Numbered from the stretch's first letter, positions 32,121-44,956 are shown. The stretch is 64,000 bases of DNA from a bacterium (GCA_027398005.1 DAHYUM010000001.1:203-64202); one strand, 5' to 3'. The notes: a model not told the origin generated them from the sequence alone. Translations and numbers: made by a program.

Positions 32121-32819
32121 ATGAAAGCAGTTATTGATATTGAAACTTCGGCATTCGGGTTCGATACACTAAGCGAAAGCCAGCAGGAATATATTTTAAG
32201 AAGCGCGGAACAGGAAAAGGATGAGAACACAAGGGATGAGAAGCGGGAAGAGGCAATTCGGTATTTAAGCCTCTATCCATTTACGGCAAAAGTTATTGTG
32301 ATAGGTATGCTGAATGTAGAGACTGAAAAATCGTACGTATTATTCGAAAGCGATACCCCCTCCGAATGGGAAAACGATGAGAAGAAGGTAAAGTACAAAG
32401 GCTTAAGCGAACATGAGATGCTGGAGCAGTTTTGGGCGCTGGCAAAAAAGACCGAGCAGGTAATTACTTTTAACGGGCGCAATTTCGATATCCCCTTTTT
32501 AATGCTCCGTTCGGCTATGCTTGGCGTAAAGCCCTCAAAGAATTTTATGGGCAACCGTTACGATTCGGCTCTGCACCTCGATTTGCTCGACCAGGTTTCG
32601 TTTTACGGAGCCGTGCGTAAATTCAATCTCGATTTTTACTGCCGCTCATTCGGAATTGAATCCCCCAAATCGAAAGGCATAACCGGAATGGATGTAAAAG
32701 AACTTTACGATGCAGGCAGGATTAAAGATATTGCCGTTTATTGCGGGGATGATATTAAAGCTACATTCGAACTTTATAAAATTTGGAAAGATTTTCTTAA
32801 TATTCATAATTCGCATTAA
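32121..32819 (+). CDS. RNase H-fold 3'-5' exonuclease (PolB-exonuclease-like, DEDDy)
   Basis: Motifs DIET, FNGRNFDIPF and YCGDD occur in order. Confidence 0.7.
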   Translation: MKAVIDIETSAFGFDTLSESQQEYILRSAEQEKDENTRDEKREEAIRYLSLYPFTAKVIVIGMLNVETEKSYVLFESDTPSEWENDEKKVKYKGLSEHEMLEQFWALAKKTEQVITFNGRNFDIPFLMLRSAMLGVKPSKNFMGNRYDSALHLDLLDQVSFYGAVRKFNLDFYCRSFGIESPKSKGITGMDVKELYDAGRIKDIAVYCGDDIKATFELYKIWKDFLNIHNSH

Positions 32820-32829
32820 TGGAGTAATA

Positions 32830-33882
32830 TTGAACAATTTATTTAAAACGGTACTTCTCATTCTTCTTTTTACGGTCTGTTCAACCGCAACGGGACAGGA
32901 TAAAGGTACTGCCCTTATTAAAGGCACGGTTGAAGATTACGAGACGGGGGAAATGCTAATAGGGGCAAGCGTCTATTTTGAGGGAACCACTATTGGAACT
33001 ACCGCGGGATTAAAAGGGGATTTTACCCTTACCGTAAGCCAAAAAGGAAACTATGAGCTGGTTGTTTCGATGGTGGGTTATCTGCCTCAGAAGTTAGGCT
33101 ACTATATTGAATTGGGAAAAACATACAATTTAAAGGTTAAGCTGAAACAGAATGCTATTAATATGGCGGCGGTAGAAATTAAAGGGGAAGACCAGGGGGA
33201 GTGGAAAAGGGATATTGGAATATTCACCCGTAAATTTCTGGGCACAATGAAACCTGCTTCGGAATGCGTTATAGAGAATAAGGAATATATAAATTTTATT
33301 AACCGGGGCGATACGATTACAGCTTCTTCTTCAAAGCCGGTAGTGGTAGTAAATAATTATCTGGGCTACAGAGTTGTTTGCGAAATAATTAGTTACAAAT
33401 ATGATCCGGTTTCAACATACCAGGCATATTCATTCTTTTCCCGTTTTGAAGAAATGAAACCGAAAGATGATGCAGAGAAGGAGAAATGGATTAAGAACAG
33501 GGAGCAAATATTTTTCGGCTCGCCGGTTCATTTTTTATGGGCTTTAAGGAACAACCGCTTAAATGAGGAGGGTTTCAGGGTCTTCCCTCAGTCGGGCAGT
33601 ATTGCAAACCGTCTCTTTGCGGGGAACGAAATAAAAAGTCTTGATGAATTAAAATACGGAGAACAGATATTTGAGGAGCCGGCAGTTTCTTTTAAGAACG
33701 TATTGAAAATTGAATATAAAGGGGGGGATAAATCGTACATTGAACCGCGATACCCATTCTTTACAATAGATGCTTCCGGCATAGCAGATAACCATCTTCC
33801 CTTTATAAGCTACGGCTACTGGGCCGGATGGGGAGTGGCAAATATGCTGCCGAGGGGATATCTTCCCGCTTCGCTTAAATGA
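32830..33882 (+). CDS. CarboxypepD_reg-like domain protein, paralog 1
   Basis: I prefer the TTG start at 32830, with GGAG 6 nt upstream. It yields a clean signal peptide (MNNLFKTVLLILLFTVCSTATGQ). The N-terminal G.V.D..TGE.L.GASVYF motif marks the domain. The protein aligns over its full length with the next gene. Confidence 0.75.
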   Translation: MNNLFKTVLLILLFTVCSTATGQDKGTALIKGTVEDYETGEMLIGASVYFEGTTIGTTAGLKGDFTLTVSQKGNYELVVSMVGYLPQKLGYYIELGKTYNLKVKLKQNAINMAAVEIKGEDQGEWKRDIGIFTRKFLGTMKPASECVIENKEYINFINRGDTITASSSKPVVVVNNYLGYRVVCEIISYKYDPVSTYQAYSFFSRFEEMKPKDDAEKEKWIKNREQIFFGSPVHFLWALRNNRLNEEGFRVFPQSGSIANRLFAGNEIKSLDELKYGEQIFEEPAVSFKNVLKIEYKGGDKSYIEPRYPFFTIDASGIADNHLPFISYGYWAGWGVANMLPRGYLPASLK

Positions 33883-33934
33883 TTGTGTTTAATTACAGTT
33901 ATTGAAATAAAAATTCTTTTTACCGGACTCCATT

Positions 33935-35011
33935 ATGAATAGAAGAATAAAACCTGTTTATTATTTACTTTTTCTCATATTGCTTTCATCGTTAAATGCG
34001 CCTGCCCAGGTAAAGCCGCGCACCTTAATAAAGGGAAAGATTACCGATGCCAATACGGGGGAGCCATTGCCCGGGGCAAGCATTTATTTTGTTGAAACCA
34101 CAATAGGCACATCCGCAAAGCAGGATGGCACGTATACAATTGAAGCCGATAAACCGGGTTATTACCAGTTGATTGTATCTATCGTAGGTTACGAAATGGT
34201 AAAGAAGAATTATAATTTAGAAACGGGCAGGGAGTACACGCTCGATTTTAAATTAAAACCGAAACCTGTTAATGTAAGCGCAGTGGAAATTACGGGGGAA
34301 GACCAGGGGGAATGGAGAAGGGACTTAAAATTATTTACCGGTAGATTTTTGGGAAAAGGCGAAGCTGCAGAATATTGCACTATTGAAAATAAAGAAATGA
34401 TTAATTTCAAATGGGCGGGGGATACTCTGTGCGCTTCTTCACCAAAGCCGGTTGTGGTAATAAATAAGTTTCTTGGTTATAAATTAATTTGCGAACTTGT
34501 TAAATACAGGTATAATCCATATTCGGCATATCAGGAATATTCAATTTATCCCCGTTTTGAGGAGCTTACCCCCGCCGATTCATCCGAAAAGAAGACGTGG
34601 GAGGAGAACCGCGAGCAGGTATTCAACGGCTCGCCGATACATTTTTTATGGGCATTAAAGCATGATAGGCTTGAAGAGGAAAATTTCGGTATTTACTTTG
34701 CCGTTGCCCCGTTTAACAGGGTGTTTTACCCGGTAATGCCGGTAACCGACCTGAACCAGATAAAATACTTTACTAAAAACGATAATGAAATATCATATTC
34801 TTTTAAAGGATACCTTAAGGTACAGCACGGGATTGGGCATTATTCATTCATAAAAATGCGCGTCCCCTTCTTTTCTATAGACGATTACGGCATTGCCGAT
34901 TTCCACCTCCCCTTTATTTCAATAGGCGAGTGGGCCAAACTCGGCGTATCCGAACTTCTTCCGAGAGGGTATATTCCCGATTCATTAAAAAAATCGATTA
35001 ATAAGAAATGA
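33935..35011 (+). CDS. CarboxypepD_reg-like domain protein, paralog 2
   Basis: Signal peptide, then GKITDANTGEPLPGASIYF. It shares blocks with paralog 1 (EDQGEW.RD, GSP.HFLWAL, LPRGY.P.SLK). Confidence 0.8.
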   Translation: MNRRIKPVYYLLFLILLSSLNAPAQVKPRTLIKGKITDANTGEPLPGASIYFVETTIGTSAKQDGTYTIEADKPGYYQLIVSIVGYEMVKKNYNLETGREYTLDFKLKPKPVNVSAVEITGEDQGEWRRDLKLFTGRFLGKGEAAEYCTIENKEMINFKWAGDTLCASSPKPVVVINKFLGYKLICELVKYRYNPYSAYQEYSIYPRFEELTPADSSEKKTWEENREQVFNGSPIHFLWALKHDRLEEENFGIYFAVAPFNRVFYPVMPVTDLNQIKYFTKNDNEISYSFKGYLKVQHGIGHYSFIKMRVPFFSIDDYGIADFHLPFISIGEWAKLGVSELLPRGYIPDSLKKSINKK

Positions 35012-35727
35012 CGTACGAACAGAACAGAAAGGAATATGAAAAAAACCTGAAGACGGGCATAATTGTAAGCCTGTTTTTGCATTTAATTATAATTGTCCCT
35101 TTAATGTTCGAACGGGATGCCATACCAAGTTTTAAGGAAGGAATTGTAACAAGTAAAATCACGGATTTGGAGCTGGCCAATATTGTAGCCGAAAATTATG
35201 AAATTGCCCCTCCCGGCGGGGGCGCAGGGGGAGGAATGCCGGGAATTGAAGCGGGAAAGAAAATTGAAAGGGGAATTCCTGTACCCGTTAGCAAGGAGAT
35301 AAAAACGGATTATGATTTTATATCATCTGCCGGTCCTGATAGTGCAAAGCCGGGGAAAAATGTTAGAACAGGAACCGGATTAGGAACCGGAATAGGAACA
35401 GGAACGGGCTCGGGAACAGGAAGCGGTAAAGGAACAGGCGCAGGAGCCGGAAGCGGGGATGGAACCGCACTGCTTCCCTTTACTCCTAAGCAGATATTGG
35501 AAGTAATACCCGAAAAGAAAGATGATTACAAGGGTATTATTAAGCTTTCTGTACGTATAGGTAAAGACGGGCGTGTTAAGGATCATAAAGTATTGAATAA
35601 CAACACCGGCAGTGCCGGATGCCTTGCGGCCGTACTGGAGGCGGTGTACCGTTCCAAATGGCAGGCGGTTAAAATTGAGGGGAAAATGGTTGAATACTGG
35701 ACAGAAAAAACGTACAAATTCGAATAG
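35008..35727 (+). CDS. TonB-like energy-transducer protein with a Gly-Thr/Ser linker
   Basis: ATGA-coupled to paralog 2. It has an N-terminal TM anchor, a GTGLGTGIGTGTGSGTGSGKGTGAGAGSG linker (nt 35368-35463) and a C-terminal TonB_C-like domain. Confidence 0.65.
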   Translation: MTYEQNRKEYEKNLKTGIIVSLFLHLIIIVPLMFERDAIPSFKEGIVTSKITDLELANIVAENYEIAPPGGGAGGGMPGIEAGKKIERGIPVPVSKEIKTDYDFISSAGPDSAKPGKNVRTGTGLGTGIGTGTGSGTGSGKGTGAGAGSGDGTALLPFTPKQILEVIPEKKDDYKGIIKLSVRIGKDGRVKDHKVLNNNTGSAGCLAAVLEAVYRSKWQAVKIEGKMVEYWTEKTYKFE

Positions 35728-36881: not shown

Positions 36882-37385
36882 ATGAACGGAGAGCATTCCT
36901 TAAAAAATAAAGGCATTTACATTTTAACCGGAGCAGTTGGAAGCGGCAAGACCACTTTTATTTTCAATTGGCTTAAAGACCATCCTTTCTCAGGGGGCAT
37001 TATTACCCTTACCCGGCAGAACTGTAGGGTGTTATACGATGTAATCGGAAAAGAAGAGATAAATTTTGAAACCCCGCCGGACGAAAAAGCTGAAACTGTT
37101 AACATTGGCAGATACAAATTTTATAAATCGGCATTCGAACGCGCAGAAGAAATAATTGAAAATACCGATTTCGTTAAGACCGGCTGTTTTGTTCTTGACG
37201 AAGCGGGTCCGCTTGAACTGCGGGGAGAGGGCTTCGATAAAGCAGTTAGAAAACTGATTGAGATAAACCGCGAATACGGCACTGCGCTTGTTTTTATAGT
37301 GCGAGAAAACTGCGTTAACGATTTTATAACTAAATATTACTTAGCTGACTCCATTATTAGAACAAAGGAAAATTTTTCATTATGA
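36882..37385 (+). CDS. P-loop NTPase (THEP1/DUF2478-like)
   Basis: Walker A GAVGSGKTT and Walker B-like FVLDEAGPLE. It is ATGA-coupled to mobA. Confidence 0.6.
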   Translation: MNGEHSLKNKGIYILTGAVGSGKTTFIFNWLKDHPFSGGIITLTRQNCRVLYDVIGKEEINFETPPDEKAETVNIGRYKFYKSAFERAEEIIENTDFVKTGCFVLDEAGPLELRGEGFDKAVRKLIEINREYGTALVFIVRENCVNDFITKYYLADSIIRTKENFSL

Positions 37386-37969
37386 ATTTGTTAATGCCGG
37401 CATATCTTTTATGCGGAGGGGGCAGCAAGCGTTTCGGCAGCGATAAGGCCCTTGCCCTGATAAACGGAAGAAAAGTTATTGAGATAATAATTGAGGAATT
37501 AAGAAAAGTTTTCCCTTCAATTTATCTCGTAACTTCGGGGGATGATAAATACAGTTTCACCGGAATTGAATGCATTAAGGATATTTATGCCGGACGCGGT
37601 CCCCTTGCGGGCATTCACGCGGCGCTTAATCATTCCTCTTACGAAAGAGTCTTTATTATCTCATGCGATATGCCTCTTATAACGGGAGAAGCAATGGAAT
37701 ATATTGCCGGTTATAGCACACAAAAGAATGCAGTCATTCCTTTTTCGGGGGGGAGGAATCATTATATGTGCGCAGTTTACGGCAAAAGCCTTGCGCATAA
37801 AGCAGGCGAACTTTTAGAATCCACTTCTTCACAATTAAAATCGGCCGGAGTAGCCCCGCTTGTTAAAGCCTCCGATGCCGAAATAATAAATTTCGACTCA
37901 CTGCCGCAATTCAATCCGAAGATATTTTTTAATCTCAATACGATTGAAGATTTAAATTCCCTCTCTTAG
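37382..37969 (+). CDS. mobA: Molybdenum cofactor guanylyltransferase
   Basis: Motifs LCGGGSKRFGSDKAL, GPLAGIHAAL and ISCDMP. Confidence 0.85.
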   Translation: MNLLMPAYLLCGGGSKRFGSDKALALINGRKVIEIIIEELRKVFPSIYLVTSGDDKYSFTGIECIKDIYAGRGPLAGIHAALNHSSYERVFIISCDMPLITGEAMEYIAGYSTQKNAVIPFSGGRNHYMCAVYGKSLAHKAGELLESTSSQLKSAGVAPLVKASDAEIINFDSLPQFNPKIFFNLNTIEDLNSLS

Positions 37970-37983
37970 TACTTCTAAAAAAT

Positions 37984-38002
37984 GTGTCCGGAAACCGGAC
38001 AC
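37984..38002 (+). terminator. Hairpin after mobA (possible terminator, no T-tract)
   Basis: GTGTCCGG-aaa-CCGGACAC, an 8-bp stem 15 nt after the stop. Confidence 0.4.
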
Positions 38003-38240
38003 GCAAATAAATTTGGCACGCAATAAAAATAACCCACGGAGTCCTTAAATAATACATAGATGCCCTGTTTTTATGCAAAATTTGAACAAAAACTCATTAA
38101 TAAAAGTCCTATTTCGGGCTAAAAATGGACTTTGAGTGTTATTATAGAACAAAAATATCTTAATACCTCTTGATATTATTTTAAAAATGCATAATTTTGT
38201 ATGTAAAGAAAGTTGATATTTATAAATACCAAGTATTGTC

Positions 38241-38687
38241 ATGAAAGAACAACTCGAAAACAAAAGCACACCCCTTTTCCCGATTAGCACTGCGGCAGAA
38301 CTTCTTGGCATTTCGGTTCATACCTTAAGAATGTACGAGAAGGAAGGACTGATTGTTCCCTTCAAGAAAGACTCTAACCAGAGGCGCTATTCAAGAGCCG
38401 ACCTTGAGAGAATACAATGCGTGCGAAGGGCAATTAACGAAGATAAAATAAGCATAGAGGGAATTAAAAGAATGCTTGCCCTTATACCTTGCTGGAGCAT
38501 TATGAAATGCAGCGATAAGGAGAGGGAGGCATGCCCGGCCTACATTAATATGGAAAAACCATGCTGGGCCTACAATCTTGAAGATAACGTATGCGCCAAA
38601 ATGAACTGTTCGGAATGCGAAGTGTACAACAGCTTTGTAGAGTGTAATTCAATTAAAGATTATATGAAACAGAACTGGGGTAAATAG
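38241..38687 (+). CDS. MerR-family regulator with a C-terminal 8-Cys domain
   Basis: MerR HTH (ISTAAELLGISVHTLRMYEKEGLI...RRYS). The C-terminal part reads PCWSIMKC...EACPAY...KPCWAY...VCAKMNCSECEVYNSFVEC. Confidence 0.85.
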   Translation: MKEQLENKSTPLFPISTAAELLGISVHTLRMYEKEGLIVPFKKDSNQRRYSRADLERIQCVRRAINEDKISIEGIKRMLALIPCWSIMKCSDKEREACPAYINMEKPCWAYNLEDNVCAKMNCSECEVYNSFVECNSIKDYMKQNWGK

Positions 38688-38688
38688 T

Positions 38689-38718
38689 TTGAACTCTATT
38701 TCACTTAATAAATACAAT
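38689..38718 (+). promoter_or_regulatory. Sigma-70-like promoter in front of the octaheme cytochrome gene
   Basis: TTGAAC (38689-38694), an 18-nt spacer, then TACAAT (38713-38718), about 30 nt upstream of the ATG. Confidence 0.45.
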
Positions 38719-38747
38719 ATAACCGTAAAATAAACATCCGGGATTCT

Positions 38748-40331
38748 ATGAAAAAAATAGTCATATCACTTGTTATTTTAGGCTTGGTGGCTGTAACTAC
38801 AATAGGACTTCTATCGTCGCATGTTGTTGAACAATCCCAATTAAGCCTATTAAGGGCGAGGCTGGAAAAGAAAAAATCTATTCCGGTCGATCACTCAAAA
38901 TTTCCCGAACTTCAGAAGAAGTTCACTTCTCCTCAGCAGGTTACCGAAACCTGCATTACCTGCCATAATAAAACGGCCGATCAGGTCATCCATTCTAATC
39001 ACTGGAACTGGGAAAGGGAAGAGTATATTCAGGGAAGAGGCATCGTTTATCTGGGCAAGAAAAACGCCATTAACAATTTCTGTATAGGTGTTGAAGGAAA
39101 CGAGCAAAGCTGTGCTAAATGCCATATCGGTTTCGGCATGACTGCCAAAGGATTCTCCTTTACCGATCCTAAGAATATCGACTGCCTTGTATGCCACGAT
39201 AATACCGAGACTTATTCGAAAGGGAACGAAATGGGAGGAGCCCCCGATCCTTCTGTTGACTTGAACAAGATTGCACAAAACGTAGGGGAGCCGAATAGAT
39301 CCAATTGCGGCGTTTGCCATTTCTACGGCGGCGGCGGAAATAACGTTAAACACGGCGACCTCGAAAAATCGATGTTTGAGCCCACCAGAGATATTGACGT
39401 GCACATGGCTACAACAGGACCGAATTTTTCATGTGTAGAATGCCATACAACTGTAGATCATAACATAAGCGGTAAACTTTATTCCCTTTCCTCAATGAAC
39501 AGGAACAGGGCTACATGCGAACAGTGCCACACATCTAATCCGCACGACAGCGAAATTCTCAATAAACATACTTATAAAATCGCATGCCAGACCTGCCATA
39601 TTCCCGTTTACGCTAAAGAAAATGCTACAAAAGTTGCATGGGACTGGTCGACTGCCGGACAGCTTAAAGACGACAAACCTTACGAAGTTGACGACAGCGA
39701 CGGCAACCATACATATCTTTCAATTAAAGGTAGCTTTAAATGGGGCAAAAACCTTAAACCCGATTATGTTTGGTTTAACGGAACAGCAGAACACTATCTG
39801 CTCGGCGATACTATAAAAGATGTTTCGAAACCTCTGGTTCTTAACCAGCTTAACGGTTCTTACCTCGATAAGGAATCCAAAATTATTCCGGTTAAAATAC
39901 ACCGCGCTAAACAGCCTTACGATCCGGTAACAAGGCTTCTTATCCAGCCCAAACTCTTTGCCGAAAAGAAAGGGGAAGGCGCCTTCTGGAAAGATTTCGA
40001 CTGGGAGAAAGCCGCCGAAGTCGGAATGAAAGATGTCAACCTTCCTTTCAGCGGTAAAATTGAATTTATTCAGACCGAAATGTACTGGCCTCTTAACCAT
40101 ATGGTTTCTTCAAAGGATAAATCGCTTACATGTACCGACTGCCATACAAGGGACAACAGCAGGCTTGCCGGTTTGAACGATTTCTATATGCCTGCCAGGG
40201 ATTACAGTCCTTTTATTGATTACGCCGGTTTAACTGTTGTTCTTCTTTCGTTCGCGGGTGTATTCGCTCACGGAACATTGAGGATAGTATCTTCACGCAA
40301 AAGAAAAAGAGGTATGAACAATGAAAAATAA
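38748..40331 (+). CDS. Octaheme c-type cytochrome, tetrathionate-reductase (OTR) family
   Basis: Eight CXXCH motifs counted: CITCH, CAKCH, CLVCH, CGVCH, CVECH, CEQCH, CQTCH and CTDCH. The N-terminal block VDHSKFPELQKKF...VTETCITCH...HSNHWNW resembles OTR. There is an N-terminal signal/anchor and a C-terminal hydrophobic helix followed by RKRKRG. Confidence 0.8.
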   Translation: MKKIVISLVILGLVAVTTIGLLSSHVVEQSQLSLLRARLEKKKSIPVDHSKFPELQKKFTSPQQVTETCITCHNKTADQVIHSNHWNWEREEYIQGRGIVYLGKKNAINNFCIGVEGNEQSCAKCHIGFGMTAKGFSFTDPKNIDCLVCHDNTETYSKGNEMGGAPDPSVDLNKIAQNVGEPNRSNCGVCHFYGGGGNNVKHGDLEKSMFEPTRDIDVHMATTGPNFSCVECHTTVDHNISGKLYSLSSMNRNRATCEQCHTSNPHDSEILNKHTYKIACQTCHIPVYAKENATKVAWDWSTAGQLKDDKPYEVDDSDGNHTYLSIKGSFKWGKNLKPDYVWFNGTAEHYLLGDTIKDVSKPLVLNQLNGSYLDKESKIIPVKIHRAKQPYDPVTRLLIQPKLFAEKKGEGAFWKDFDWEKAAEVGMKDVNLPFSGKIEFIQTEMYWPLNHMVSSKDKSLTCTDCHTRDNSRLAGLNDFYMPARDYSPFIDYAGLTVVLLSFAGVFAHGTLRIVSSRKRKRGMNNEK

Positions 40332-40992
40332 AGTATATATATACAGATCGTTCGAAAGGTTCTGGCATTGGATGCAGGCTATTCTCATTTTCTTTCTTGC
40401 TGCCACCGGTTTCGAAATTCACGGAGTTATAAATTTCTTCGGCTATGCCAACGCGGTTAAATACCACAGCGTTGCCGCTTACATTTTTATCATCCTTATA
40501 GTATTCGCAATATTCTGGCATTTTGCAACAGGGGAATGGAAACAGTATGTGCCTACGCTTGAGCATTTGCGTTCGCAGATAGATTTTTATCTGGTAGGCA
40601 TTTTCAGGAATGCTCCCCATCCCACAAAAAAGAGCGTATTAAGCAAGCTTAATCCGCTTCAGAAACTTGTTTACCTTGCATTAAAAATTCTTGTAATTCC
40701 CACAATGGTAATTTCGGGCCTCCTCTATATGTTTTACCGTTATCCACAGAAAGGGGGAATTGAAGGACTCAATATCGATTCGATTAATGTTATTGCGCTA
40801 TTCCACACTGCAGGGGCTTTCCTTCTGCTGGCTTTCATTATAGTGCATCTTTATCTTGTTACTACGGGTACAACCATTACCTCCAATTTAAAGGCTATGA
40901 TTACCGGTTACGAAGAAATTGAGACCGAAGAGGGGAGTAATGAAGAAAAAAGCAATAAAACAAATTTGAAAGAAGAGGTTGTAAATGAATAA
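40321..40992 (+). CDS. Cytochrome b (PhsC / Ni-Fe-hydrogenase b-type cytochrome family) membrane subunit
   Basis: The N-terminal RFWHW motif, about 4 TM helices carrying conserved His, and an 11-nt overlap with the cytochrome c gene. Confidence 0.75.
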   Translation: MKNKVYIYRSFERFWHWMQAILIFFLAATGFEIHGVINFFGYANAVKYHSVAAYIFIILIVFAIFWHFATGEWKQYVPTLEHLRSQIDFYLVGIFRNAPHPTKKSVLSKLNPLQKLVYLALKILVIPTMVISGLLYMFYRYPQKGGIEGLNIDSINVIALFHTAGAFLLLAFIIVHLYLVTTGTTITSNLKAMITGYEEIETEEGSNEEKSNKTNLKEEVVNE

Positions 40993-41503
40993 TCCAGAAA
41001 AGTATATGAACCCGTATTTGGCGGGATTTTTGCTCGGCCTTACATTGCTTGTTACAATCTATATAACGGGACGCGGTTTGGGCGCAAGCGGCGCGGTTAA
41101 AAGTGCCGTAGTGGCAGTAGTTCAGACTGTTGCCCCCGCCCACACAGAGAGCGCCAAGTTTTATAAAGAATATTACGACGAGCATCCGGGCAATCCATTA
41201 AAAAACTGGCTTGTATTCGAAATTATTGGTGTAGTTATAGGCGCATTTATATCGGGTTTAGTATCCAACAGGCTTAAACTTACACTTGAACATTCTCCTA
41301 AAATAAAGAGCCGCACAAGAATAGCGGGCGCATTAATTGGAGGCGCATTGTTCGGATTCGGCGCACAGTTCGGAAGAGGCTGTACAAGCGGTGCCGCTCT
41401 TAGCGGTATGGCTGTCTTTTCAACAGGCGGACTGATTACAATGATCGCCATTTTCGGCGGGGCTTACGCATTCGCTTATTTTTTCAGAAAACTGTGGCTA
41501 TAA
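40985..41503 (+). CDS. YeeE/YedE-family sulfur-transport half-protein
   Basis: GRGLGASG and GRGCTSGAALSG motifs. 172 aa. It overlaps the upstream gene by 8 nt. Confidence 0.8.
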   Translation: MNNPEKYMNPYLAGFLLGLTLLVTIYITGRGLGASGAVKSAVVAVVQTVAPAHTESAKFYKEYYDEHPGNPLKNWLVFEIIGVVIGAFISGLVSNRLKLTLEHSPKIKSRTRIAGALIGGALFGFGAQFGRGCTSGAALSGMAVFSTGGLITMIAIFGGAYAFAYFFRKLWL

Positions 41504-41514
41504 TATAAGGAGAT

Positions 41515-42717
41515 ATGAATATGGGACCATTAGTACCCGACGTAATCGGGAATCAATTGAATTTAGTTGTAGCGCTTTTTGTAGGCATTGCATTCGGTTT
41601 TGTTCTTGAGCAGGCAGGGTTTTCAACCTCCAAAAAGCTTGTAGGATTATTCTACGGATATGATTTTACCGTTCTGCGCGTTTTTATGACCGCAGGCGTT
41701 ACGGCAATGATTGGCGTTGTTGCACTTGACCATTTCGGACTGCTTGATATAAGCCAGATTTTAATTAACCCTACATTCCTCTGGTCTGCTATTGTTGGGG
41801 GAATTATAATGGGACTCGGTTTTGTTATTGGAGGTTTCTGCCCGGGTACAAGCGTATGCGCAGCCGCAATAGGCAAAATTGACGCGATGATTTTTATTGC
41901 AGGCTCTTTGCTTGGCGTTCTTGTTTTTGCCGAAGGATACCCGATGTTTGAAGGGCTTTACAAAGCCGCAAACTGGGGCAACGTGCAGATATTCAATACT
42001 CTCGGCATGTCGCAATCCTTATTTGCATTCCTCCTTACCGCAATGGCGGTAGGCGCCTTCTGGGGCGTTACCGTTATAGAGGCTAAAGTAAACGGCAAAA
42101 TGGATCCTGAATATAAATCGAAAAAATTATATTACGGACTTACTATACTCGCAGGCGTTATAGCCCTATCGGCTTTTGTAATGCCCGATAGAAAAGACGA
42201 ATTAATGGGAAGCATTCAGGATAAAGGATTTGTAACGAATTACAATGTAAATGAAATGACATCAGATGAGCTCGCATTCAGGATAATGGATTCGGACCAG
42301 AAACTGCAGATATTCGATTTAAGGGCGCAGAAGGAATTCGATTCACTTGCACTTCCTTTTTCTGCCAGATACGACATACAGAATTTCTTCGATAAGGAAA
42401 CGGGCAAGAAACTTTCGTACAGGAATATGAAAAATGTGTTTGTAGCCAACGATGAATATACAGAAAAACAGGGAGCCGTTCTGGCAAAGGAACTGGGCTT
42501 CCACGATATTTATGTGCTTAAAGGGGGGCTCAACGGATTCAGAAAAGATATTCTCAATTTTGAACAGCCGGGAGAACCTAAAAACAGACGCGAAACCGAT
42601 ACATACCGTTTCAGAAACGAGGCGAAAACTACCATTCCTGTTCTTATAAAAGAGTATAAACAGAAACAGGCGCCTAAAGAATCTTCTAAACCGAAGAGAA
42701 AACTGGTTGGCTGTTAG
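41515..42717 (+). CDS. YeeE/YedE-family half-protein fused to a rhodanese-homology domain
   Basis: The N-terminal TM domain contains GGFCPGTSVCAA. The C-terminal roughly 110 aa align with GlpE-type rhodanese (QIFDLR...VLKGGLNGF), but the catalytic-Cys position is Asn. Confidence 0.8.
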   Translation: MNMGPLVPDVIGNQLNLVVALFVGIAFGFVLEQAGFSTSKKLVGLFYGYDFTVLRVFMTAGVTAMIGVVALDHFGLLDISQILINPTFLWSAIVGGIIMGLGFVIGGFCPGTSVCAAAIGKIDAMIFIAGSLLGVLVFAEGYPMFEGLYKAANWGNVQIFNTLGMSQSLFAFLLTAMAVGAFWGVTVIEAKVNGKMDPEYKSKKLYYGLTILAGVIALSAFVMPDRKDELMGSIQDKGFVTNYNVNEMTSDELAFRIMDSDQKLQIFDLRAQKEFDSLALPFSARYDIQNFFDKETGKKLSYRNMKNVFVANDEYTEKQGAVLAKELGFHDIYVLKGGLNGFRKDILNFEQPGEPKNRRETDTYRFRNEAKTTIPVLIKEYKQKQAPKESSKPKRKLVGC

Positions 42718-42750
42718 TTTTTTTCATTCATACGGCTTTCCTTATTGTGA

Positions 42751-42777
42751 GTCCCGCCTAAAAGCGGGACTTTTTTT
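42751..42777 (+). terminator. Intrinsic terminator of the cytochrome/YeeE operon
   Basis: GTCCCGC-ctaaaa-GCGGGAC followed by TTTTTTT. Confidence 0.85.
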
Positions 42778-42786
42778 ACCCCGGGC

Positions 42787-42815
42787 TTGCATAATTATGG
42801 GCATATGCTTATAAT
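42787..42815 (+). promoter_or_regulatory. Near-consensus sigma-70 promoter of the DUF134 / NifX-like pair
   Basis: TTGCAT (42787-42792), a 17-nt spacer, then TATAAT (42810-42815). The spacer contains the palindrome GCATATGC. An AGGAGA RBS lies at 42821. Confidence 0.6.
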
Positions 42816-42830
42816 TAATCAGGAGAAATT

Positions 42831-43130
42831 ATGGCGCGAAGAAAATGTGTACGTTGTATTGGAGGCAGGCCCGAGGTTGTTTACTATAAACCGGCGGGTA
42901 TAAGACTTATAGACCTTGAAGAGGTAGTTCTTGAGCTTGACGAGTATGAAGCAATTAAACTGGCCGACCTGGAAGGCTTGTACCAGGAGGAGGCGGCATT
43001 AAGAATGAATATCTCGCGCCAGACTTTTGGAAGGATTATTGAAGCGGCGCATAAAAAAATAGCCGATGCAATAGTAAACGGAAAAGCAATTAAAATTGAA
43101 GGGGGAAATGTAGCCCCCATTAACAAATAA
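42831..43130 (+). CDS. DUF134 (UPF0251) family putative DNA-binding protein
   Basis: 99 aa. The pattern FKP.G......V.L..DE.EA.RL.D.EGL.QEEAA..M.ISR.T..R is well matched (YKPAGI...LELDEYEAIKLADLEGLYQEEAALRMNISRQTFGR). Confidence 0.8.
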   Translation: MARRKCVRCIGGRPEVVYYKPAGIRLIDLEEVVLELDEYEAIKLADLEGLYQEEAALRMNISRQTFGRIIEAAHKKIADAIVNGKAIKIEGGNVAPINK

Positions 43131-43147
43131 ATAAAAAGGCAAATAAA

Positions 43148-43531
43148 ATGAAAATAGCGGTTCCTACAAGAATGGATATGGTTGACGGTCATTTCGGGCA
43201 TTGCGAGTATTATTCGGTTTATTCCCTTAATGAAGAGAATGAAGTAATTAAGAAAGAAATTATTAAATCCCCCGAAGGATGTGGATGCAAATCGGATATT
43301 GCGCCTATACTTCAAAATGAAGGAGTAAAAGTAATGCTTGCCGGCAATATGGGCATGGGAGCATTAAATATGCTTGCAATGCACGATATTGAAGTAATAC
43401 GGGGATGCAGCGGCAATACGGATGAAGTTGTGCGCCTCTTTTTAGAAGGGCAGGTTAAGGATAGCGGTGTAGGCTGCGAGCATCACACCCATGGCCATAA
43501 TCACGAACACGGGCATACCTGCAACCATTAA
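43148..43531 (+). CDS. NifB/NifX-family (dinitrogenase FeMo-cofactor-binding domain) protein with a His-rich tail
   Basis: MKIAVP......V..HFGHC..Y is typical of the family. The C-terminal tail reads CEHHTHGHNHEHGHTCNH. Confidence 0.75.
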   Translation: MKIAVPTRMDMVDGHFGHCEYYSVYSLNEENEVIKKEIIKSPEGCGCKSDIAPILQNEGVKVMLAGNMGMGALNMLAMHDIEVIRGCSGNTDEVVRLFLEGQVKDSGVGCEHHTHGHNHEHGHTCNH

Positions 43532-43535
43532 TTAT

Positions 43536-43571
43536 TTTAAAGGCCGTTTTAAATTTAAAACGGCCTTTAAA
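43536..43571 (+). terminator. Perfect 36-bp palindrome (probable terminator hairpin)
   Basis: TTTAAAGGCCGTTTTAAATTTAAAACGGCCTTTAAA is its own reverse complement, which I checked by hand. It begins 5 nt after the stop codon. Confidence 0.55.
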
Positions 43572-43627
43572 TTCCTCTCTGTAATTCTTCCAATAATATT
43601 CTATACCAATGAATTTAGAACTTAACT

Positions 43628-43727
43628 CCTCATTCATAATCTTTCATATTGTTTTCCACAGAAAAGAATATTGTGTGTAATCCCTCCTTTATAATCTTTC
43701 ATATTGTTCCCCAAAGCAAAGAATATA
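43628..43727. repeat. Two copies of a 45-bp direct repeat (55-bp period)
   Basis: Copies at 43628-43672 and 43683-43727 match at 38/45 positions by manual alignment. Both contain a perfect 18-bp core, ATAATCTTTCATATTGTT (43636-43653 and 43691-43708). Confidence 0.85.
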
Positions 43728-43735
43728 GAGCTAAA

Positions 43736-43774
43736 CCCCTCCTTAGTAAGGAGGGGTGGCCGGCAAAGCCGGCC
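43736..43774. repeat. Two adjacent GC-rich palindromic hairpins
   Basis: CCCCTCCTTA-g-TAAGGAGGGG (43736-43756) and GGCCGGC-aaa-GCCGGCC (43758-43774). Confidence 0.8.
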
Positions 43775-43824
43775 GGGGTGGTGTACCGGGGTGGTGTACC
43801 GGGGTGGTATACCGGGGTGGTATA
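43773..43824. repeat. 13-bp tandem repeat x4
   Basis: CCGGGGTGGTGTA x2 followed by CCGGGGTGGTATA x2, head to tail. It is intergenic, about 160 nt upstream of galE. Confidence 0.9.
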
Positions 43825-43984
43825 CTGGTATTCCCTAACCAGCCAATAATTCTAATTTTGCACTATCCCGTTCCCTCATCATTCCGTTAAACTAATTGGT
43901 TATTTTATGCACAGGCAAAGGGTAAATAACCGCTTGCGGGGGCAGGGCTTAATACCTATTTTTGCATATAAAGAAGGAGACGGG

Positions 43985-44956
43985 ATGATACTAGTTACTG
44001 GCGGAGCCGGTTATATTGGTTCCCATTTTGTTAAATACCTTATTGAAAGGGGGAAAGAGGTTCTTGTAATTGATAACCTTTCCCGCGGACACAGGGAAGC
44101 AGTTAACGAAAAAGCTAAATTTGAACAGGCAGATATACTTGATTACGATGCCCTGACTGCAATACTGAAAAAATATGAAATTGAAGCGGTAGTTCATTTT
44201 GCCGCATTCGCTTATGTGGGGGAATCGGTTGAGAAACCGGAAATGTACTACAGAAACAATGTGGTGGGGAGTTTCAATCTTATTAAAGCCGTTAACGAAA
44301 GGGGAATTAAGAAATTTGTTTTTTCCTCCACCTGCTCGCTCTACGGCAATCCGTATAAGGTGCCTATTTCGGAAGATGAACCTACAAAGCCTATAAACCC
44401 TTATGCGCAGACTAAATTGATGATAGAAAAAATGCTGCATGATTTTGACGCGGCATACGGATTGAAATATGTGGCACTGCGTTATTTTAACGCGGCCGGA
44501 GCCGATTTTGAAGGTAAGATTGGGGAAAGCCACGAACCGGAATCGCATCTTATTCCTATTGTGCTTGAAGCCGCGCTGGGCAAGAGGGAAAAAATATCCG
44601 TATTCGGTGATGACTACGAAACTGAGGACGGAACATGCATAAGGGATTATATACATATATACGACCTTGCAGACGCGCATCTTAAAGCGCTTGAATATCT
44701 TGAAAGCTACAAGCAGTCCGATGTTTTTAATCTGGGTACGGGAGCGGGATATTCGGTAAAGGAAATAATTAAGACAGCCGAAAAGGTAACGGGAACATAT
44801 CTAAAACAGGAAATTTCCAAAAGAAGGGCAGGCGACCCGGCAATTCTTGTAGCCGATAATCAGAAAGCTAAAAAGATTTTAAAATGGGTTCCTAAATATA
44901 ATCTTGAAGAGATAATTGAATCTGCCTGGAACTGGCATAAAAATCAATTATATTGA
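43985..44956 (+). CDS. galE: UDP-glucose 4-epimerase
   Basis: MILVTGGAGYIGSH, the YAQTK (YxxxK) motif and the overall GalE layout. The start at 43985 has an AAGGAG RBS. The ORF-track start at 43907 was rejected. Confidence 0.9.
   Translation: MILVTGGAGYIGSHFVKYLIERGKEVLVIDNLSRGHREAVNEKAKFEQADILDYDALTAILKKYEIEAVVHFAAFAYVGESVEKPEMYYRNNVVGSFNLIKAVNERGIKKFVFSSTCSLYGNPYKVPISEDEPTKPINPYAQTKLMIEKMLHDFDAAYGLKYVALRYFNAAGADFEGKIGESHEPESHLIPIVLEAALGKREKISVFGDDYETEDGTCIRDYIHIYDLADAHLKALEYLESYKQSDVFNLGTGAGYSVKEIIKTAEKVTGTYLKQEISKRRAGDPAILVADNQKAKKILKWVPKYNLEEIIESAWNWHKNQLY

Follow-up and report, generated by a model that had tools for sequence, protein, structure and literature searches.

An octaheme cytochrome, a cytochrome b and a split YeeE-type channel with a cysteine-tipped rhodanese-like domain form a conserved four-gene cassette

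What does an octaheme c-type cytochrome of the OTR family do in the cell, and why should it be encoded beside a sulfur transporter? The question is raised by a locus in a 64,000-nucleotide stretch of bacterial DNA (GCA_027398005.1, DAHYUM010000001.1:203-64202; here called the window), in which an OTR gene is followed by a cytochrome b gene and by two genes for the halves of a YeeE-type transporter. OTR was reportedly crystallised in 2004. According to a 2026 study, no physiological function has ever been established for it; the same study describes otr mutants as being without a tetrathionate phenotype and tentatively suggests sulfite reduction (PMC12949373). A sequence-only reading of the window had taken the region 38241-43531, from a MerR-type regulator to a DUF134 gene and a NifX-like gene, as one sulfur redox and uptake module, in which OTR would convert tetrathionate or a related oxyanion and YeeE would import the product. 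The comparison given here reduces the module to a four-gene core (38748-42717) and adds a key feature absent from that reading, a conserved C-terminal Gly-Gly-Cys arm. The core is proposed to be a membrane-bound, quinol-dependent periplasmic reductase of S-S bonds that works with a tethered cysteine carrier and a cysteine-lined YeeE channel, a proposal to which we would give an even chance.

An octaheme cytochrome and its invariant partners

All seven open reading frames (ORFs) of the region were confirmed with the gene order, coordinates and spacings that had been claimed for them, and every domain call made for them held in Pfam and NCBIfam profile searches (Table 1). The merR-otr gap is 60 nt, otr and cytb overlap by 11 nt, cytb and yeeA by 8 nt, and yeeA and yeeB are 11 nt apart; DUF134 begins 113 nt after yeeB and lies 17 nt before nifX. 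The stem-loop with a T-run that had been read as a terminator after yeeB is also present. The start of yeeB is probably the second ATG, at 41521, since nearly all homologues in the databases begin MGPLVP and most database gene calls use this second methionine; the yeeA-yeeB gap would then be 17 nt rather than 11.

The OTR protein scores 589.3 bits over its whole length against the NCBIfam model TIGR04315 (cutoff 375). Exactly eight CXXCH motifs are present (residues 69, 122, 146, 187, 229, 257, 280 and 462), and the protein matches the OTR of Shewanella oneidensis (1SP3) with an E-value of 1.3e-126 and about 55% identity over residues 55-469; a grouping with HAO, ONR or MccA was not seen. The two proteins share the eight c-hemes, the GKKN motif with the lysine ligand and the NNFC motif with the active-site cysteine, both of which align. 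Lys104 (39057-39059) and Cys112 (39081-39083) of the window protein are 99% conserved among 83 sequences, and their equivalents in 1SP3 we take to be Lys56 and Cys64. From this alignment Lys104 is the predicted ligand of the active-site heme.

Unlike the soluble Shewanella enzyme, the window OTR has a C-terminal hydrophobic helix (residues 489-507, nt 40212-40268) followed by the basic tail RKRKRG, as the sequence-only reading had noted, and it would thus be a periplasmic protein held by a C-terminal transmembrane (TM) anchor with its tail in the cytoplasm. A further addition is the pair His508 and Arg512, found in 100% of the 83 sequences within the anchor region (residues 489-520, nt 40212-40307). 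As a residue of a single-pass anchor beside a di-heme cytochrome b, His508 could be either a heme ligand or part of a quinol site. Comparable anchors are those with which hydrogenase small subunits and FdnH dock on HyaC and FdnI, respectively.

The cytochrome b encoded next has four hydrophobic segments, scores 98.1 bits against PF01292 (Ni_hydr_CYTB; cutoff 30.1) and has conserved histidines at residues 16, 34, 49, 67, 100, 162 and 176. Its best NCBIfam match is PhsC (NF011582), at 106 bits and under the equivalog cutoff of 204, which agrees with the PhsC or hydrogenase type assigned earlier. The four TM helices and conserved histidines are held in common with the PhsABC system, from which the locus differs in having OTR and not PhsAB as the catalytic partner. 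A cytochrome b of this PhsC/FdnI/HyaC type is presumed, from its family, to be the quinol-oxidising partner of OTR. The cytochrome b of Bacteroidia is longer, at about 387 residues, with a PAS domain added at its C-terminus (L075 11620-12786; L166 7814-8977; L numbers denote compared loci), an unusual case of a membrane subunit of a respiratory enzyme joined to a cytoplasmic sensor domain.

Conservation of the gene set was followed in both directions, with presence and absence called by tblastn. The forward set took one genome per GTDB species in a scan with OTR and comprised the best 80 of at least 585 relatives (49-73% identity). Homologues of OTR number more than 7000 in all. Cytochrome b lies directly after OTR in 80/80 of the scanned loci, and of the 68 that extend far enough downstream, 60 have both YeeE halves next to each other after cytochrome b. 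The phyla represented include Ignavibacteria, Bacteroidota, Acidobacteriota, Planctomycetota, Armatimonadota (Chthonomonadia) and LCP-89, among others. In the reverse test, a metagenome scan with the YeeB-rhodanese protein that was confined to orthologues of at least 55% identity, OTR, cytochrome b and YeeA were found upstream in 44/44 loci with enough sequence. Because this co-conservation holds both ways and the genomic contexts differ, OTR, cytochrome b, YeeA and YeeB-rhodanese constitute a real, mobile and conserved four-gene cassette, and the earlier expectation that the YeeE halves belong with OTR and cytochrome b is borne out.

The eight loci that lack an adjacent YeeE pair reveal what is present where the channel does not follow directly. 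Seven are without YeeE, and the eighth (L078) keeps the pair 3.2 kb downstream. In the seven, the gene after cytochrome b encodes a lipoprotein of 167-187 residues with a single rhodanese domain (Pfam, 69-88 bits), and in L078 a tandem-rhodanese lipoprotein of 361 residues follows an inserted porin-like gene. The lipoproteins of all eight loci have a signal sequence, a lipobox cysteine and a C-terminal GGC, features that recur in 12/12 further members of the lipoprotein-rhodanese family, and the single-domain forms retain the catalytic loop YCKKGxRS. The lipoprotein signal sequence places these unfused proteins in the periplasm. The order OTR, cytochrome b and rhodanese-GGC is seen again in Draconibacterium and in another Bacteroidota contig, and no NCBIfam model reached its cutoff on the standalone lipoproteins. 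Among the 68 species-level genomes whose sequence runs far enough downstream, at least 67 have a rhodanese-fold GGC protein alongside OTR and cytochrome b; by sequence, the invariant triad is OTR, cytochrome b and a protein of rhodanese fold that ends in a GGC cysteine, and this constant company is a further difference from the Shewanella enzyme.

The YeeE-less cassettes are adjoined by a tandem-rhodanese lipoprotein, a porin of an anion type (Porin_O_P or Alginate_exp) and another rhodanese (L080 12670-15514; L084, L085; L167 615-3633; L078 12316-14708). This set looks like a system for sulfur traffic between outer membrane and periplasm, and resembles the ExtH (rhodanese) and ExtI (porin) pair of Geobacter. 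In 12 of 148 loci (L049 814-1143 and 11 others) a thioredoxin gene is found no more than about 1 kb from the cassette, and its product could keep the carrier and channel cysteines reduced.

In the literature, clusters of Otr with cytochrome b561 have been described from metagenome-assembled genomes of Ignavibacteriae and interpreted as reductases of tetrathionate or nitrite (PMC7509429), and octaheme and rhodanese clusters of Dethiobacter are induced on thiosulfate (PMC10376724). Literature searches on OTR turned up mentions of Otr together with cytochrome b561 and none of YeeE or rhodanese partners or of the terminal cysteine; likewise no paper was found that couples OTR to YeeE, as the sequence-only reading had supposed.

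A split channel that carries a dead rhodanese domain and a terminal cysteine

Both YeeE halves match the Pfam family Sulf_transp (cutoff 27), half A with 83.5 bits over profile positions 175-309 and half B with 52.8 bits over positions 4-161. YeeA has four TM helices and aligns to residues 237-326 of StYeeE (6LEO/8J4C), with its Cys133 (41381-41383), which is 100% conserved, at the position of StYeeE Cys293. This StYeeE cysteine is the periplasm-facing thiosulfate site, and the half-size proteins PmpA and PmpB correspond to the C-terminal half (C293) and the N-terminal half (C91) of YeeE, respectively (PMC11582611). YeeB has four TM helices and an extra TM hairpin (nt 42013-42183), modelled by AlphaFold2 (AF2) as helices 167-193 and 203-222. 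It contains only three cysteines, Cys109 (41839-41841) and Cys115 (41857-41859), which are 100% and 82% conserved in orthologues, and Cys400, the last residue. The cysteine-containing loops GRGCTSG and GGFCPGTSVC that had been picked out earlier are present, and their cysteines are conserved.

The pair retains equivalents of C293 and C91 and none of C22, and models of TsuA score just 49 and 19.5 bits on the halves against a cutoff of 400. Both halves also match YedE/FdhT selenium-transporter models, far below the cutoffs. On this evidence the split pair fits the half-size PmpA/PmpB type and not the single 9-TM YeeE/TsuA, with YeeA as the PmpA-like C-terminal half and YeeB as the PmpB-like N-terminal half. 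The two ~4-TM halves with one such cysteine each and the A-then-B gene order are shared with PmpA/PmpB. Passage of thiosulfate may be a function of this channel type. Searches of YeeB against the PDB with phmmer and with profiles returned no YeeE structures, and only the rhodanese domain was matched.

The side of the membrane on which the rhodanese domain lies is central to the argument. StYeeE is N-out/C-in, its halves are inverted by way of helix 7 and its periplasmic funnel is positively charged (PMC7449682). Positive-inside counts show that the TM2-TM3 loop and the C-terminus of YeeA are strongly basic, which argues that YeeA is N-in/C-in. YeeB would then be N-out, because the pseudo-222 architecture of YeeE needs a partner antiparallel to YeeA, and its charge distribution agrees, with K+R at 6.3 in the predicted inside loops and 2.6 outside. 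As two extra TM helices precede it, the rhodanese domain would stay on the outer, N-terminal side. Taken with the lipoprotein analogue, the topology makes it highly probable that the fused domain is periplasmic.

The domain itself is recognised by Pfam (27.3 bits; cutoff 22.2), is modelled by AF2 with a confidence score (pLDDT) of about 90 and is placed by Foldseek among rhodanese folds (TM-score about 0.7, root-mean-square deviation about 2.1 Å). Its active-site loop, VANDEYTE (42439-42465) and more generally [SA][ND][DG]E, is without the catalytic cysteine, which is found in 0/66 orthologues; judged by its sequence, the fused rhodanese is catalytically dead. It is followed in the AF2 model by a long helix and then a disordered tail of about 15 residues. 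This tail ends K-R-x-x-G-G-C(x0-2) in 62 of 65 orthologues, with the terminal cysteine 97% conserved (Cys400 in the window, 42712-42714). More widely, the YeeB-Rhd-Cys family comprises 232 clusters in a library of 50%-identity representatives (E ≤ 1e-30), and 88 of the 94 full-length representatives have a cysteine among their last four residues, as GGC, GGCG, GGCS, REGC and in one case GGCGG. The combination of a PmpB-like half, two TM helices, a dead rhodanese and a terminal cysteine makes this a large and unannotated family.

A C-terminal cysteine in such a setting recalls SoxY, whose GGCGG cysteine is an established sulfur-binding swinging arm (PMC6067878), and by analogy Cys400 is proposed to be a sulfur-carrier cysteine. 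The features in common are a Gly-Gly-Cys at the extreme C-terminus of a protein that is periplasmic, here by prediction, with Lys/Val before it and, as proposed here, covalent carriage of sulfur to partner enzymes. The likeness is one of motif only (GGC, GGCG and the one GGCGG): the scaffold here is a rhodanese, homologous to SoxY neither in sequence nor in fold, the YeeB fusion has no SoxY family match in Pfam or NCBIfam, and the partner would be a reductase and not the oxidising Sox enzymes. A further parallel may be drawn with Sud and PsrABC of Wolinella succinogenes, where a periplasmic rhodanese-fold carrier serves a quinol-dependent periplasmic sulfur reductase, and a profile search with the YeeB fusion also retrieves Sud (1QXN; E 0.005). 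Sud is soluble with a canonical active-site cysteine, whereas here the loop cysteine is lost, the cysteine is C-terminal and the carrier is tethered to a channel; moreover, the reductase of the window is a multiheme cytochrome and not a molybdoenzyme. A thiocarboxylate role for the tail, of the kind played by the GG ends of MoaD and ThiS, was rejected on the grounds that there is no beta-grasp fold and no ATP in the periplasm.

A rival scheme in the line of the sequence-only reading uses these same components differently, with OTR reducing free tetrathionate in the periplasm, the split YeeE importing thiosulfate and the fused rhodanese processing it in the cytoplasm in the manner of YeeD/TsuB. 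This would account for the tight co-conservation of the cassette and for the reduction of tetrathionate by OTR in vitro, as cited in PMC7509429 and PMC12949373. It also has a precedent, for YeeE/TsuA imports thiosulfate with an essential cysteine-bearing cytoplasmic partner, YeeD, which acts as a 'fourth cysteine' for YeeE, and the two proteins also occur fused in nature (PMC11073785); the basic C-terminal tail would, in addition, suit the cytoplasm. However, the catalytic cysteine is absent from all orthologues, the topology arguments put the domain outside and its unfused counterpart, being a lipoprotein, is periplasmic, so that the rhodanese no longer stands as a cytoplasmic thiosulfate-processing enzyme. 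Furthermore, deletion of otr was harmless to tetrathionate respiration in Shewanella ANA-3 and MR-1, where OTR is not induced by tetrathionate (PMC12949373), and the YeeE-Rhd-Cys module is coupled elsewhere to Psr/Phs-like enzymes. We therefore regard the scheme as unlikely. What survives of it is the set of quinol, cytochrome b and OTR acting with YeeE, which the co-conservation supports; the Psr/Phs exchanges and the otr deletions mean that tetrathionate is not specifically indicated. As with YeeE/TsuA, a cysteine-bearing partner that is sometimes fused to the channel would be retained, but as a dead rhodanese with a terminal cysteine, predicted to be periplasmic, instead of the TusA-like CPxP protein YeeD/TsuB in the cytoplasm. 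Unlike in PmpAB and YeeE, two extra TM helices join it to the channel, and the whole is linked in one operon to a respiratory reductase.

Exchange of the partner enzyme and the proposed course of sulfur and electrons

Further variants come from the contexts of seven distant YeeB-Rhd-Cys proteins (about 30-35% identity). Two retain OTR. L168 encodes a TIGR04315 OTR (578 bits), an extra multiheme cytochrome, cytochrome b, YeeA and YeeB-Rhd-Cys, and the gammaproteobacterial L173 differs in having the extra multiheme cytochrome fused to cytochrome b; the YeeB-Rhd proteins of both end in GGC(G)(G). In L172, a PhsA-like molybdenum subunit, a 4Fe-4S subunit and NrfD precede YeeA and YeeB-Rhd-Cys, and L169 has the same order, its 4Fe-4S subunit, an uncharacterised ORF, being only presumed. 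The molybdenum subunits of L169 and L172 have PhsA as their best match (527 and 479 bits, below the cutoff of 694 and twice the score of any other family). L171 has 4Fe-4S and NrfD genes before YeeA/YeeB, an upstream gene cut by the contig end and no recorded rhodanese hit. The carrier and channel module is therefore found, as judged by sequence, to serve two unrelated classes of periplasmic quinol-linked enzymes, one of them the polysulfide/thiosulfate reductase family. That the same module stands behind either OTR with cytochrome b or Psr/Phs-like enzymes argues that the former is a functional analogue of Psr/Phs and indicates its functional equivalence to the Psr/Phs-type sulfur reductases.

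This exchange also bears on a nitrogen-based explanation, according to which OTR and cytochrome b would be a nitrite or hydroxylamine reductase for the detoxification of nitrogen oxyanions and the YeeE-rhodanese genes unrelated operon mates. The activity of OTR in vitro is indeed greater with nitrite and hydroxylamine than with tetrathionate, as cited in PMC12949373 and PMC7509429. Set against this are the strict two-way co-conservation with sulfur-trafficking proteins across several phyla, the persistence of a rhodanese-GGC partner even where YeeE is missing and the replacement of OTR and cytochrome b by Psr/Phs-like enzymes before the same module. Together these make the nitrogen explanation very improbable.

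In the reductive scheme that we prefer, menaquinol would be oxidised by the four-TM cytochrome b and the electrons passed to OTR, which the helix at its C-terminus would tether to the membrane, to arrive at its lysine-ligated active-site heme. The PmpA-like and PmpB-like halves would form an antiparallel heterodimeric channel, with the extra TM hairpin on the B half placing the dead rhodanese-like domain in the periplasm. The flexible tail of some 15 residues on this domain would bring its conserved cysteine to sulfur, the terminal thiol taking it up covalently as a persulfide/polysulfide or an S-thiosulfonate, as on the GGCGG arm of SoxY or on Wolinella Sud. The arm would present the adduct to the reductase for two-electron cleavage of the S-S bond, and would also trade thiosulfate or sulfane sulfur with Cys133 of YeeA for a transmembrane relay via Cys109 and Cys115 of YeeB. 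An exchangeable regulator would govern the genes, MerR with eight cysteines here and MarR, ArsR/BigR-like, Crp/FNR, two-component or DUF134 proteins elsewhere. Polysulfide or persulfide, thiosulfate and tetrathionate are the candidate substrates, and the channel would either import the product or deliver the substrate. Relatives of PmpAB import zero-valent sulfur, and in one model a SoxYZ-persulfide hands its sulfur to a YeeE-like importer (PMC11582611).

A more specific version of the scheme, which we advance only tentatively, is that the physiological substrate of OTR is no free oxyanion but a sulfur adduct (persulfide, polysulfide or S-thiosulfonate) on the C-terminal cysteine of a dedicated periplasmic rhodanese-fold carrier, that in the large YeeE-linked clade the arm also swaps this sulfur covalently with the cysteine ladder of the split channel, coupling reduction to translocation, and that the arrangement was recruited independently by OTR and by Psr/Phs-like enzymes. 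Protein-bound sulfane or thiosulfonate sulfur would then be a concrete and testable answer to the question of the natural substrate of OTR. The cassette is built from known families; its novelty as an experimental handle on that question lies in the carrier arm. If the version is correct, respiratory reduction and the transmembrane group-translocation of sulfur would be physically coupled in one complex. The findings also hint at a periplasmic equivalent of the pairing of YeeE with YeeD in the cytoplasm. In addition, the cassette points to an unrecognised and widespread route for the turnover of S0, polysulfide, thiosulfate and tetrathionate in anoxic soils, sediments and wastewater, habitats in which Ignavibacteria, Bacteroidota and Acidobacteriota abound.

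The electrons might also run the other way. A SoxAX- or TsdA-like OTR would in that case couple thiosulfate or sulfide to the carrier cysteine, the electrons would pass via cytochrome b to quinone and the adduct would enter the channel. Cytochromes b of the FdnI/HyaC type normally serve periplasmic oxidising enzymes, the GGC arm imitates that of SoxY, on which SoxAX acts, and a divergent soxY/soxZ pair adjoins otr in the sulfur-oxidising symbionts of lucinids (PMC11237559). The tetrathionate/thiosulfate couple is described as being of relatively high potential (PMC12949373), the alternative partner enzymes are Psr/Phs-type reductases and the Bacteroidia loci have regulators of the Crp/FNR type, all of which count against an oxidative direction. 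Lysine ligation of the active-site heme, moreover, is typical of reductases, NrfA and OTR among them, and the lineages that carry the cassette are taken to use low-potential menaquinone. With the couple high and menaquinone low in potential, oxidation of thiosulfate to menaquinone would be unfavourable, and we consider this direction improbable.

A selenium or tellurium system is about as doubtful. Here OTR would reduce selenite, tellurite or a selenotrisulfide on the carrier cysteine and a YedE-like channel would import the reduced selenium. The idea draws on the YedE/FdhT matches of both YeeE halves, on weak N-terminal matches to ExtN/ExtO among the NCBIfam hits, on the resemblance of the Bacteroidia rhodanese-porin-rhodanese genes to the ExtH/ExtI selenite/tellurite cluster of Geobacter (PMC5877670) and on the occurrence of selenoproteins among members of TIGR04315 and of the YeeE family. 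Every one of the selenium-family matches, however, is far under its cutoff, the recurrent neighbours at 148 loci include no selD, selA, selB or other selenium-utilisation gene, and the partner exchanged for OTR is PhsA-like and not a match to a selenate or selenite reductase model.

Several observations weigh against the preferred reductive scheme itself. Shewanella OTR favours nitrite and hydroxylamine over tetrathionate in vitro, according to work cited in PMC12949373, and the soluble OTRs of the Shewanella type fall outside the 80-locus sample. One of the seven distant loci (L170) has YeeAB-Rhd-Cys with only a tandem rhodanese upstream and no reductase, so that the arm may primarily serve the channel. 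In the fused form the arm has a strongly basic character and the periplasmic funnel of StYeeE is positive, which disfavours a simple insertion of the one into the other. In the AF2 model of the fusion (38-sequence alignment) the membrane part has a pLDDT below 50 and is unreliable, hence the topology is argued from homology, from charge bias and by comparison with the lipoprotein analogue. Finally, the YedE models align YeeB to the opposite half of the transporter, which leaves its profile-based assignment as the N-terminal half ambiguous.

Regulators, neighbouring genes and feature coordinates

The MerR-type regulator and the DUF134/NifX-like pair had both been counted in the module by the sequence-only reading, and neither is retained. 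MerR lies directly upstream of the cassette on the same strand in 20 of 70 GTDB loci and in 44 of 148 loci overall (about 30%). Its helix-turn-helix region matches MerR_1, and no equivalog model (SoxR, CueR, HspR and others) reaches its cutoff. The C-terminal domain holds eight cysteines (residues 84-135, nt 38490-38645) that are 98-100% conserved in 45 distinct orthologues; a Pfam search of this tail at E ≤ 10 gave only noise and no known family. The 20-nt palindrome before merR may be an operator or promoter element of that gene, and a promoter at this position would leave merR almost leaderless.

Table 1. Features of the locus, in window coordinates
Feature	Position	Strand	Evidence
Perfect-type 20-nt palindrome TTGATATTTA / TAAATACCAA, 8 nt before the merR start	38213-38232	+	inverted-repeat search
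merR	38241-38687	+	Pfam MerR_1, 66 bits
otr, OTR-family octaheme c-type cytochrome	38748-40331	+	TIGR04315, 589 bits
cytb, four-TM b-type cytochrome	40321-40992	+	Ni_hydr_CYTB, 98 bits
yeeA, YeeE half A	40985-41503	+	Sulf_transp, 83.5 bits
yeeB, YeeE half B fused to rhodanese-like domain	41515-42717	+	Sulf_transp, 52.8 bits; Rhodanese, 27.3 bits
YeeE half B portion with extra TM hairpin	41515-42183	+	Sulf_transp
Rhodanese-like domain fused to YeeE half B	42247-42564	+	Pfam, AF2, Foldseek
C-terminal helix of YeeB fusion	42586-42669	+	AF2 model
Flexible basic arm of YeeB fusion, ending ...KRKLVGC	42670-42714	+	
Terminator-like stem-loop and T-run closing the otr-cytb-yeeAB unit	42749-42777	+	
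DUF134	42831-43130	+	Pfam, 81.2 bits
His-tailed NifX-like protein, Nitro_FeMo-Co domain	43148-43531	+	Pfam, 75.1 bits

Clustering of recurrent neighbours at the 148 loci returned the eight-cysteine MerR 44 times, MarR 31, a PAS histidine kinase 24, DUF134 16, thioredoxin 12 and a NifX-like protein 10 times. MarR occupies the position of MerR, on the same strand and at a median of 47 nt upstream, in its 31 loci (e.g. L026 9517-9966), and Crp/FNR (L166, L167), ArsR/BigR-like (L168) and two-component regulators (L004, L173) are found at others. The regulators of the cassette are thus freely exchanged, and MerR is facultative.

DUF134 occurs within 5 kb of the cassette, at either end, in about 11% of the loci, and was rejected as a part of the module along with NifX for that reason. 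In L115 (8268-9002) DUF134 and Nitro_FeMo-Co are fused as one protein of 244 residues, and further DUF134 loci are L018, L093, L096, L114, L127 and L146. The domain content suggests a DNA-binding protein paired with a sensor of a cluster or ligand, which would make DUF134/NifX an alternative regulator pair. The near-consensus promoter reported before DUF134 (TTGCAT-17-TATAAT, 42787-42815) has a perfect -10 element; its -35 element matches at only 3/6 positions, for which reason a consensus scan did not list it.

The source is probably a bacterium of the Ignavibacteriales: near-identical contigs exist in GCA_027398045.1 and the nearest named homologues are from this group. A look-up of the exact OTR sequence returned no record, and a 99% identical OTR is known (P0001), which led to contigs of the same species. 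The flanking genes are unrelated to the cassette and encode a lipoprotein N-acyltransferase, a beta-eliminating lyase, TonB-related proteins, MobA and sugar-nucleotide enzymes. An Rfam scan of 37800-44000 gave nothing near any gathering score. A P-loop protein (NTPase_1) and MobA, the molybdenum cofactor guanylyltransferase, are encoded just upstream (36882-37969, with a 4-nt overlap), and there is no molybdoenzyme in the cassette despite MobA nearby. MobA was rejected as part of the module, as it is kept only in near-identical contigs of the same species, with one weak match (28%) in L007. In one lineage (L004/L005, 2863-7763), a DsrMKJOP/Hmc-like set lies directly upstream of OTR and consists of a CCG-domain protein, a NarI-like cytochrome b, a 4Fe-4S protein and NrfD fused to cytochrome c3. 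Further upstream in the window, the stretch 32710-35727 encodes a tandem pair of paralogous CarboxypepD_reg-like proteins and, after them, a protein with a TonB_C domain.

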